A stretch of 64,000 nucleotides of DNA from the NCBI RefSeq assembly GCF_041248615.1, contig NZ_CP158426.1. One strand, given 5' to 3'. Positions 30,001 through 33,000 of this stretch are shown here, one piece after another. The DNA is from Escherichia coli (GTDB lineage: Bacteria; Pseudomonadota; Gammaproteobacteria; Enterobacterales; Enterobacteriaceae). A program made the position numbers. Numbering within the stretch: position 1 is the first letter of the stretch; each line of letters opens with the position of its first letter.

Positions 30001-33000
30001 ACACCCGCAGATCTCGATCCCCGTCGGCAGGCCATGCTGCTGTACTTTCAGGGATACCGCGTAGCCCGCATTGCTGAAATGCTGGGCGAGAAAGTTGCAA
30101 CCGTTCACAGCTGGAAAAAACGCGACAAGTGGGGTGACTATGGGCCGCTGGATCAGATGCAGCTCACCACCGCCGCACGCTACTGCCAGCTCATCATGAA
30201 GGAGCACAAAGAAGGGAAAGACTTTAAAGAAATTGACCTGCTGGCGCGCCAGTCGGAGCGCCACGCGCGGATCGGCAAGTTTAACAATGGTGGCAACGAA
30301 GCCGACTTAAACCCTAACGTCGCCAACCGCAACAAAGGCCCGCGCCGTCAGCCGGAAAAGAATGTTTTCACCGATGAACAGATTGAAAAGCTGGAGGAAA
30401 TCTTCCATTCCTCCATGTTCAACTACCAGCGCCACTGGTGGGAAGCCGGAAAAACCAACCGCATCCGCAACCTGCTGAAGTCACGCCAGATCGGCGCGAC
30501 CTTTTACTTTGCCCGTGAAGCCCTGATTGACGCCCTGCTTACCGGACGTAACCAGATTTTCCTTTCCGCCAGTAAGGCACAGGCCCACGTCTTTAAGCAG
30601 TACATCATCGACTTCGCCAAAGAAGTGGATGTGGAGCTGAAAGGCGATCCGATGGTGCTTCCTAACGGGGCCACGCTTTACTTCCTCGGCACCAATGCCC
30701 GCACTGCCCAGAGTTATCACGGCAACCTGTATCTGGATGAATATTTCTGGATACCGAAATTCCAGGAGCTGCGCAAAGTGGCTTCCGGTATGGCTATTCA
30801 CAAGAAATGGCGACAAACCTATTTTTCCACGCCATCCAGCCTGACTCATAGTGCTTATCCGTTCTGGTCCGGTGCGCTGTTCAACCGTGGGCGCAACAAA
30901 GCCGATAAGGTGGACATCGACCTGTCCCACAGCAATCTGGCCCCCGGCCAGCTGTGCGCCGACGGGCAATACCGCCAGATAGTCACCGTGGAAGATGCGG
31001 TGCGCGGCGGCTGTAACCTGTTCGACCTTGACCAGTTGCGCATGGAGTACAGCCCGGACGAATACCAGAACCTGCTGATGTGCGAGTTTGTGGACGATCT
31101 CGCGTCCGTGTTTCCGCTCAGCGAGCTGCAGGCGTGCATGGTGGACAGTTGGGAAGTCTGGACCGACTTTCATGCTCTGGCCCTGCGCCCATTTGGCTGG
31201 CGCGAAGTGTGGATCGGTTATGACCCGGCAAAAGGTACGCAGAACGGCGACAGCGCCGGATGCGTGGTGGTGGCACCGCCAGCCGTGCCAGGCGGTAAGT
31301 TCCGCATTCTTGAGCGTCACCAGTGGCGCGGGATGGACTTCCGCGCCCAGGCTGACGCCATCAAAAAACTGACCGAGCAGTACAACGTGACCTACATTGG
31401 CATCGACTCGACAGGTGTCGGCCACGGGGTTTACGAGAACGTGAAAGCGTTTTTTCCAGCCGTCCGGGAGTTTGTCTACAACCCCAACGTTAAAAACGCC
31501 CTGGTACTCAAGGCCTACGACATTATCAGTCACCGCCGTCTGGAGTTTGACGCCGGACACACCGACATAGCGCAGTCATTTATGGCAATCCGTCGCGCCA
31601 CCACCGCCAGCGGCAACCGCCCGACCTATGAAGCCAGCCGCAGCGAAGAAGCCAGCCATGCCGATCTGGCCTGGGCAACCATGCACGCACTGTTTAACGA
31701 ACCGCTGCAGGGCGAGTCCGCCAATACCAGCAATATTGTGGAGATTTTTTGATGGGAAAGAGTAAGAAAAACCGCGCTGCGGCGACGAATCAGATCCAGC
31801 ATAAAAACCAGACTTCAGCCGAAGCATTCAGCTTCGGTGATCCCGTTCCAGTACTTGACCGCCGCGAACTGCTGGACTATGTGGAATGTGTTCAGACAGA
31901 TCGCTGGTATGAGCCGCCAGTGAGTTTCGACGGGCTGGCGCGCACCTTTCGCGCCGCCGTGCATCACAGCTCACCGATTGCAGTAAAGTGCAACATTCTG
32001 ACCAGCACCTACATCCCGCACCCGCTGCTCAGCCAGCAGGCTTTTTCACGTTTTGTGCAGGACTATCTGGTATTTGGTAACGCCTACCTGGAGAAACGCA
32101 CGAACCGCTTCGGTGAAATTATCGCCCTTGAACCGGCCCTGGCAAAATACACCCGACGCGGGTTAGACCTGGATAACTACTGGTTTGTGCAATACGGCAT
32201 GACCACGCAGCCGTATCAGTTCACGAAAGGCAGTATCTTTCATCTGATGGAACCGGACATCAACCAGGAGATCTACGGCCTGCCCGGTTATCTTTCTGCC
32301 ATTCCATCCGCCCTGCTCAACGAGTCCGCCACGCTGTTCCGTCGAAAGTATTACATTAACGGCAGTCATGCAGGCTTCATCATGTACATGACCGATGCCG
32401 CGCAGAACCAGGAGGATGTGAACAACCTCCGCAATGCGATGAAAAGCGCCAAAGGCCCTGGCAACTTCCGCAACCTGTTTATGTACTCGCCTAACGGCAA
32501 AAAGGACGGGCTTCAGATCATCCCGTTGTCAGAAGTCGCGGCGAAGGATGAGTTTCTGAATATCAAGAACGTGAGCCGGGATGACATGATGGCTGCGCAT
32601 CGTGTGCCGCCACAAATGATGGGGATAATGCCAAATAATGTCGGGGGATTTGGGGATGTGGAGAAGGCTGCTAATGTGTTTGTTCGAAACGAGTTGCTAC
32701 CTTTACAAAAAAGGATAGAGGAGGTCAATGATTGGCTAGGTGAAGATTTAATTACATTCAATTCATATTGCTTTGATTAATATTTAAGTTAGCCCCAAGA
32801 GAAATGAAAATTCTCAATGGGGCTATTATCACTTATTCAACTTCATCGTAATAAATCTCCCATTGATCATTCATACCAACAACCTGCTTTTCCTCGTAAA
32901 TATACTGAACCTTGTCAATTTCTATTACTTTTGATGAACCATCTATAAATTCCATACATGAAGGATTAAAAACAACCAAGTTCTTACCTTTACCAACTGT

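Follow-up and report, generated by a model that had tools for sequence, protein, structure and literature searches.

The left boundary of an accessory-gene hotspot lies ~110 nucleotides (nt) inside the portal gene (Q) of a P2-like prophage (Peduoviridae, Fels-2/Elveevirus type) in Escherichia coli. The prophage is found in the 64,000-nt stretch of contig NZ_CP158426.1 analysed here, which we call the window. The cassette that adjoins Q, whose cargo in the window is a gene for a RES-domain protein, takes the last ~36 codons of Q with it, and this tail still encodes the C-terminal helices of the portal, in a functional version. An earlier note on this DNA had proposed, from the AT-rich 3′ end of Q, that the cargo junction lies within the gene and that the insertion may have replaced the native portal C-terminus. 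The first proposal is borne out below; the second stands as an allelic swap, in which a divergent homologous tail takes the place of another, and fails as the arrival of foreign, non-portal sequence. Our account as a whole, to which we give a probability of roughly 0.8, is that the left cassette carries its own anciently diverged, working tail allele and is exchanged as a unit. The relevant parts of Q are the following.

31752-32780, + strand: portal gene Q ('phage portal protein' in RefSeq), starting at ATG 31752 according to RefSeq, with an in-frame TTG at 31749
31752..32666, + strand: conserved body of Q, residues 1-305, recognised by profile matches and by 2-13% nucleotide divergence in 86 loci whatever the cargo
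32616..32672, + strand: junction zone, with the last well-conserved Q sequence, ...MMGIMPNNVGGFGDVEKA, placed by changepoints in GC content and identity
32667..32780, + strand: cassette-linked AT-rich tail of Q, residues ~306-342, AANVFVRNELLPLQKRIEEVNDWLGEDLITFNSYCFD, defined by GC content, divergence, linkage and the AlphaFold2 model

Divergence and base composition change at the same point in Q

The comparison covered 86 loci, 80 of them from IMG/VR and the remainder from E. coli genomes and phage records, in each of which the Q body, the conserved cos block, and the DinI and A genes were located. A two-rate changepoint in identity, fitted for the window against each of 83 relatives whose cargo differs, had its median at 32669 (interquartile range 32663-32669), and 70 of the 83 comparisons fell within 32660-32679. 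Divergence from these relatives was 6.7% to the left of the break and 38.7% to the right. Along Q, pairs of loci with different cargo diverged by 2-13% up to 32650 and then by 22%, 28%, 41%, 46%, and finally 51% at the end of the gene. In pairs with the same cargo, tail divergence was only 2-4%, even though the Q bodies of these pairs differed as much as those of others. Megablast matches of relatives carrying other cargo ended at 32710-32737 and restarted near 34036-34189.

Base composition changes at the same place. A maximum-likelihood changepoint in GC content, computed over 31752-33987, was found at 32672 (support 32614-32707), where GC falls from 0.536 to 0.342, and coincides with the median identity changepoint. 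The onset of the shift is thus ~20 nt upstream of 32690, where the earlier note had placed it. GC is 0.33 in 32690-32780, whereas all 91-nt windows of the Q body have values of at least 0.462 (mean 0.539). As a wider background we used 91-nt windows across the 4.7 kb of genes N to Q (27935-32650), which gave a mean of 0.557, a standard deviation of 0.047, and a minimum of 0.429; none of them was as AT-rich as the tail. The sliding-window analysis therefore showed a significant shift, in agreement with the description of the last ~30 codons as more AT-rich than the rest of the gene. The low GC carries on into the spacer (0.346) and the RES gene (0.344), so that there is no compositional break between the tail and the downstream region, as had also been noted.

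The shift lies in codon choice. GC at third codon positions (GC3) is 0.33 in the last 30 codons of Q and 0.65 in the body; over 32667-32780 it is 0.31-0.33, and the rare codons CTA, AGG, and ATA are present in the tail. Translation confirmed the C-terminal peptide quoted previously, ...NELLPLQKRIEEVNDWLGEDLITFNSYCFD followed by the stop codon. Because P2 and 186 encode a similar tail peptide with a GC3 of 0.77 and 0.90, respectively, the amino-acid content of the tail does not explain the AT shift, and we discarded this source. An antisense open reading frame (ORF) at 32513-32761 was also considered as its cause and dropped, as we found no support for it.

The tail allele is inherited with the left cargo

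When the sequence from 32670 onward was clustered at 90% identity, the 86 loci yielded 53 Q-tail clusters, and the Q-cos interval fell into 50 cargo clusters. The two classifications agree almost completely (adjusted Rand index [ARI] 0.96; adjusted mutual information 0.95). No tail cluster was paired with more than one cargo cluster in the 86 loci, and the four cargo clusters that hold two tail clusters are diverged versions of one cassette. By the same measure, segments of the Q body reached an ARI of at most 0.06 with the left cargo, and the right cargo, on the other side of cos, had an ARI of 0.03 with both the tail and the left cargo. The cos-DinI interval comprised 22 cargo clusters, and the Q bodies of the 86 loci are 89-96% identical; the locus thus varies widely in content among close relatives (50 Q-cos and 22 cos-DinI clusters). 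The coincidence of the identity break at 32669 with the GC changepoint, together with the inheritance of the tail with the cargo, places the cargo junction within Q.

A survey of 5,426 complete E. coli genomes gave a similar picture. A close relative of the window's Q was present in ~1,293 of them, and the window's tail and spacer in 4, all with the RES gene and with near-identical cassettes. Among members of the RES family, proportions of synonymous differences (pS) from the window were as follows.

K56-43-un: tail 0; RES gene 0.013; Q body 0.29
19KM2415N: tail 0.78; RES gene 0.50; Q body 0.30
L096 (metagenomic): tail 0.81; RES gene 0.755; Q body 0.52

These values indicate that tail and cargo diverge together while the backbones are exchanged around them. 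K56-43-un has the same RES cassette. From position 32616 as far as the cos block it is near-identical to the window, the tail containing a single difference. On the backbone side the last mismatch between the two is at 32615, and their cos blocks are 9% different; the exchange would resolve between 32615 and 32669.

Phages without cargo between Q and cos served as controls. In P2, S164, P24B2, 186, and SI22, only ~190 nt separate Q from the chromosome end. Their tails diverge by 2.7-5.4%, about as much as their bodies (2.8-7.3%), and are GC-rich (GC3 0.67-0.86). An AT-rich, strongly diverged tail thus goes together with a cassette between Q and cos. NGF1-type cassettes (L007 and L041), which have a short cargo with a GC of 0.44, carry a GC-rich, P2-like tail with a GC3 of 0.73, ending ...GKEVIRFEPYTLGIDTNNDS, and this tail may be close to the ancestral state.

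The tail remains portal sequence

Alignment with the Q proteins of P2, 186, and Fels-2, which had been suggested as a check on the replacement of the C-terminus, showed that the tail aligns without gaps to the very end of all three. Tail and body are 61% and 64% identical, respectively, to those of P2, 61% and 63% to those of 186, and 50% and 88% to those of Fels-2, which is much closer. The motif VFVRNEL.PLQ.R...N.W....I.F..Y is kept across 49 cassette representatives, including the tail of the window. Profile searches agree: TIGR01540 (portal_PBSX) scores 366 bits (cut-off 166) over residues 52-332, corresponding to profile positions 1-316 of 320, and Pfam Phage_portal (PF04860) scores 65.7 bits over residues 95-329.

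The tail is under purifying selection. Between cassette representatives, the proportion of non-synonymous differences (pN) in the tail is 0.19 and pS is saturated at 0.88, compared with 0.009 and 0.27 in the body. Within the RES family, the ratio of non-synonymous to synonymous divergence (dN/dS) of the tail is 0.09-0.23, not above that of the RES gene itself (0.20). Even where residues 1-305 of two portals agree at 97-99%, only about half of the tail residues are the same. Full-length alignment, motif, profiles, and dN/dS all contradict a foreign replacement of the C-terminus.

An AlphaFold2 model of Q, built on 57 diverse homologues, had a predicted local distance difference test score (pLDDT) of 84.6. 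It predicts a long helix (residues 262-283), a loop (284-302), and helices at 303-322 and 324-329, with block-mean pLDDT of ~94-97 across the tail helices; the junction, at codons 305-307, falls at the start of this last helical element. The best Foldseek matches of the model in the PDB were the portals of a gene transfer agent (GTA) and of HK97 (E 4e-12 to 2e-10), and a PDB sequence search returned no solved homologue of Q.

The cos block separates two independently assorting cassettes

The left cassette ends shortly before the cos site, beyond which a second variable region begins.

34036..34189: conserved cos block, recognised by alignment with P2 cos and with the same start in the 86 loci
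34190..36560, - strand: right cassette, at the old/tin position of P2, assorting independently (ARI 0.03)
34350-36242 (RefSeq; alternatively to 36293), - strand: KAP P-loop NTPase gene (Pfam KAP_NTPase)

By alignment, the equivalent of the cohesive end is the 19-nt sequence at 34045-34063, which reads ATCGTATCCCCGCCACGCC in the window and GTGCTTTCCCCGCCTCGCC in P2. It is flanked by GCGCGC and GCCCGC, both common with P2, and a cos site is annotated at the same place in phage Cartapus. The right edge of the left cassette is sharp, being unalignable to ~34033 and invariant from 34044. Variation within the block follows the left cargo to the left of 34044 and the right cargo to the right of 34064: in the latter part, pairs with the same left and different right cargo diverge by 3-21%, whereas pairs with different left and the same right cargo diverge by at most 4%. 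This pattern puts the switch in linkage inside a 20-nt invariant stretch, of which the inferred cohesive end is part. The switch would fit either a participation of the cos ends in the exchange, as speculated by Rousset et al (2022), or crossovers confined to the invariant core.

The KAP NTPase of the right cassette matches the PADLOC candidate system PDC-S49 (E 3e-156), and the gene recurs in many relatives alongside different left cargos. Short ORFs run over the cos block, for example at 33995-34180 (+ strand) in the window and at 5259-5423 in locus L004, and one cos-spanning ORF is annotated as a 54-aa hypothetical protein in K56-43-un. Such ORFs over the packaging site are probably spurious gene calls.

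Contents of the left cassette

The left cassette extends from ~32667 to ~34035, ending ~10 nt from the cohesive-end sequence, and consists of the final ~36 codons of Q, followed by a hairpin, a single cargo gene that converges on Q, and the upstream region of that gene.

32785..32835: hairpin between the convergent Q and RES stops, with core AGCCCC...GGGGCT, found by folding
32833..33987, - strand: RES gene, 384 aa, 'RES family NAD+ phosphorylase' in RefSeq, convergent with Q
33988..34035, - strand: cassette-specific region upstream of RES, unalignable between different-cargo cassettes (66-70% mismatch)

The organisation is the same throughout: in all 50 cassette types the longest ORF lies on the strand opposite to Q and converges on it, with stops a median of 41 nt apart. 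The intervening hairpin differs in sequence per cassette, with a median minimum free energy of -16.9 kcal/mol over the 50 types. That of the window (-19.1 kcal/mol, z = -4.06) has no T-run and was not called by the consensus terminator scan; it is probably a bidirectional terminator, and we list it as a candidate. None of the 86 loci had an empty Q-cos slot, the smallest measuring 511 nt, and the cos-DinI slot was empty in 25 of 76 loci.

The RES domain of the cargo protein (PF08808) spans residues 213-347 and scores 66.9 bits, in accordance with a RES-toxin domain. The N-terminal half, ~200 aa, is unannotated and contains cysteines (e.g. CAFCCADTVC). As the protein matched neither PADLOC nor NCBIfam models, no name of a defence system can be attached to it, and we regard it as a candidate prophage defence or abortive-infection gene. 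No gene for an Xre or other helix-turn-helix antitoxin lies beside it: 32781-34035 holds the RES ORF only, and next upstream is the cos block. A promoter scan placed a candidate sigma-70 promoter for RES at 34027..33999.

Prophage setting and variant loci

The chromosome of E. coli NRZ14408 (NZ_LT599825.1) matches the window at 100% identity. The ORF list and RefSeq give the order N, O, P, Q, RES, cos, KAP, DinI-like, and A. With Q (portal) on one side and A (replication) on the other, and with cos adjoining, the locus has the position expected of the known gpA-gpQ accessory-gene hotspot, which is split here by cos into two cassettes. The neighbouring genes, all as annotated in RefSeq, are listed below.

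On the - strand: capsid (N) and scaffold (O) genes
29986-31752, + strand: terminase ATPase gene P
Between the P-loop NTPase gene and A: DinI-like and hypothetical genes
37150-39564, - strand: replication endonuclease gene A

The nearest named phages are Cartapus (Elveevirus) and vB_EcoM-813R9, and many Klebsiella prophages are also close. Fels-2 is a more remote relative, and P2 and 186 are more remote still. Two loci with RES cassettes have unusual surroundings. In L095 (IMG/VR), two transposase-like ORFs at 4203-5745, of IS3 type by eye, interrupt the portal gene, of which only the last 122 codons remain beside the cargo. In L096 (55-4155), the RES cassette and cos directly adjoin gene A, and a DinI-like gene and right cargo are absent.

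Proposed cassette exchange and alternative explanations

We propose that the left cassette is swapped as a unit between related phages. One boundary of the exchange would be a homologous crossover in conserved Q sequence just upstream of 32667, and the other would be the invariant core of cos, or might be the cut made by terminase. Between cassettes, the tails differ by ~40%, with synonymous sites saturated. At this level of divergence the tails probably cannot recombine with one another, which would make the step self-maintaining. If tail and cargo are thus inseparable by recombination, each cassette retains its own ancient tail allele. The AT-richness of the tail would come from the same long-term compositional regime as that of the AT-rich cargo, and could reflect either AT drift with relaxed codon selection in a segment that is not homogenised, or source lineages that are richer in AT. 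A tblastn search of phage records for a donor lineage of the 44-aa tail found none, the best match being Salmonella phage SEN8 (80% over 41 aa). Given this, and as the GC3 of tails correlates only weakly with the GC of their cargo (Spearman 0.29, P = 0.04), the cause of the composition is the least secure step.

That weak correlation is one of several points that weigh against our account. As the 80 loci taken from IMG/VR were those matching the window's Q best, they are a non-random sample. Distance-dependent decay of linkage does not predict a step common to ~50 cassette types, and the sharpness of the step requires, as an extra assumption, either divergence-suppressed recombination or a common ancestral frame. 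Cassette exchange itself is read from sequence comparisons. Finally, portals are described in terms of clip, stem, wing, and crown, with the helices after the tunnel loop forming the crown, and the C-terminal helices of Q would correspond to the crown as judged from a predicted monomer.

The alternative that fares best keeps the cassette model and supposes that entire cassettes came in, together with their tails, from P2-like phages whose hosts have a lower GC, with no drift in situ. The mean GC of the cargo (0.36) and the mean GC3 of the tails (0.32) are indeed far below the backbone, and the rare codons CTA, AGG, and ATA could have come with such an import. Nevertheless, no phage record combined a close tail with a divergent body, SEN8 again being the best match; the RES relatives L094-L096 have a Q body with a GC3 of 0.745 and yet a tail GC3 of 0.31; and ~50 independent imports ending at one codon would be required. 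On balance, we find this explanation rather improbable.

A further possibility is that tail diversity is adaptive, with the C-terminal helices under diversifying or matching selection and co-selected with the cargo. This would account for the contrast between a portal body (residues 1-305) conserved at 97-99% and a tail with only about half of its residues in common, for the 53 alleles in 86 loci, for the near-perfect linkage of tail and cargo, and for the absence of the phenomenon from P2 and 186, both of which lack left cargo. However, the tail dN/dS in the RES family does not exceed that of the RES gene, synonymous saturation speaks of great age and not of faster amino-acid change, proximity and divergence explain the linkage, and there is no experimental hint of any tail function. 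We consider an adaptive origin unlikely, and the same holds for the conceivable drivers, namely escape from portal-sensing immunity, avoidance of triggering the phage's own cargo, or discrimination against satellites. Diversity-generating retroelements or other targeted hypermutation were rejected in view of the saturated synonymous sites and the replacement of whole cassettes; the ORF lists and RefSeq annotation of the region contain no reverse transcriptase ORF, although no dedicated search for repeats or templates was made.

Very little speaks for an illegitimate insertion of foreign AT-rich DNA that overwrote the 3′ end of Q and left a C-terminus that is not portal. The continuity of tail composition with the spacer and RES gene (0.33-0.35) and the end of megablast similarity at 32710-32737 would be expected from such an event, but the gap-free alignment to P2 and 186 at 61% identity, the conserved family motif, the reach of TIGR01540 to position 316 of 320, the dN/dS of 0.09-0.23, and the confidently predicted helices that complete the portal fold make it highly improbable. 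Least credible of all is the absence of any junction, with a local AT quirk arising from amino acids, chance, or an overlapping regulatory element or antisense ORF: an 82-aa antisense ORF (32513-32761) does overlap the region and the 3′ ends of genes can be odd in composition, but the shift is in GC3, a similar P2 peptide is encoded at a GC3 of 0.77, no 91-nt window in 4.7 kb of late genes is equally AT-rich, and identity changepoint and linkage independently put the boundary at the same spot.

Our preferred account, in which the cassette with its own tail allele is exchanged as a unit, can be extended, although we regard the extension as doubtful. P2 is packaged from circular monomers, a piece of background that enters only this speculative model. 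The two cassettes might then be the physical ends of the packaged chromosome, separated by the terminase cut at cos and not by a crossover, with the portal helices belonging to a mobile left-end module that is possibly matched to the cargo. If so, one homologous crossover anywhere in the core, with subsequent cutting at cos, would re-assort the defence cargo, and matching could mean, for instance, that a phage's own portal neither triggers nor is blocked by the gene that it carries.

Comparison with known systems

The cargo gene of the window recalls the RES-Xre toxin-antitoxin systems, whose RES proteins, such as MbcT, are NAD+-degrading toxins. It has the RES domain (PF08808) and the RefSeq name of an NAD+ phosphorylase, but differs in having no Xre partner in its cassette and in its Cys-containing N-terminal extension of ~200 aa.

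The junction itself resembles those of tailed-phage mosaicism as described by Hendrix and Hatfull, which lie at gene or domain boundaries. Here too, relatedness changes sharply at the edge of a structural element, as the helices start at ~303-306, and this position would allow a chimeric portal to stay functional. In contrast to a one-off mosaic junction, a single junction is common to ~50 alleles and tied to a hypervariable cargo slot. A second parallel is the hitchhiking of core genes beside hypervariable loci under balancing or frequency-dependent selection, as for gnd next to the O-antigen rfb locus of E. coli. In both cases, the adjoining core sequence is deeply diverged and co-inherited with the variable locus, and sequence farther away is homogenised. 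However, the segment in Q is ~110 nt long and ends in a sharp step instead of a kilobase gradient, and it has also shifted to the AT-richness of the cargo.

The closest system is the cos-proximal hotspot for accessory and defence genes between gpA and gpQ of P2-like phages, the old/tin locus (Rousset et al, 2022; PMC9122126), which was also found by iLund4u (bioRxiv 10.1101/2024.10.15.618418) and studied by Moura de Sousa et al (2026; bioRxiv 10.64898/2026.02.27.708500). Our locus has the same position, a content that is hypervariable among near-identical phages, and AT-rich, defence-like cargo, here the RES and KAP NTPase genes. In those papers the portal is a conserved flank of a single hotspot, whereas here the variable region reaches ~110 nt into Q, the tail is almost perfectly linked to the cargo, and cos divides two independently assorting cassettes; neither a Q-internal boundary with tail-cargo linkage nor slots split by cos was found in the published hotspot descriptions that we compared. 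Moura de Sousa et al (2026) reported little linkage of defence genes to any core gene at the level of whole genes (Spearman coefficient of at most 0.2).

We therefore regard our findings as a modest refinement of a known hotspot and not as a new kind of system, and the general picture of P2 biology is unchanged. For hotspot mining anchored on the portal flank, they place the true boundary ~110 nt inside Q and distinguish two slots separated by cos. The tail allele predicts the left cargo and could be used as a practical marker. They also show that a structural protein of the virion tolerates replacement of ~50% of the amino acids in its last two helices. With regard to the known hotspot, Rousset et al (2022) speculated that cos ends take part in cassette exchange, and the switch in linkage at the cohesive end offers a sequence-level handle on that idea.

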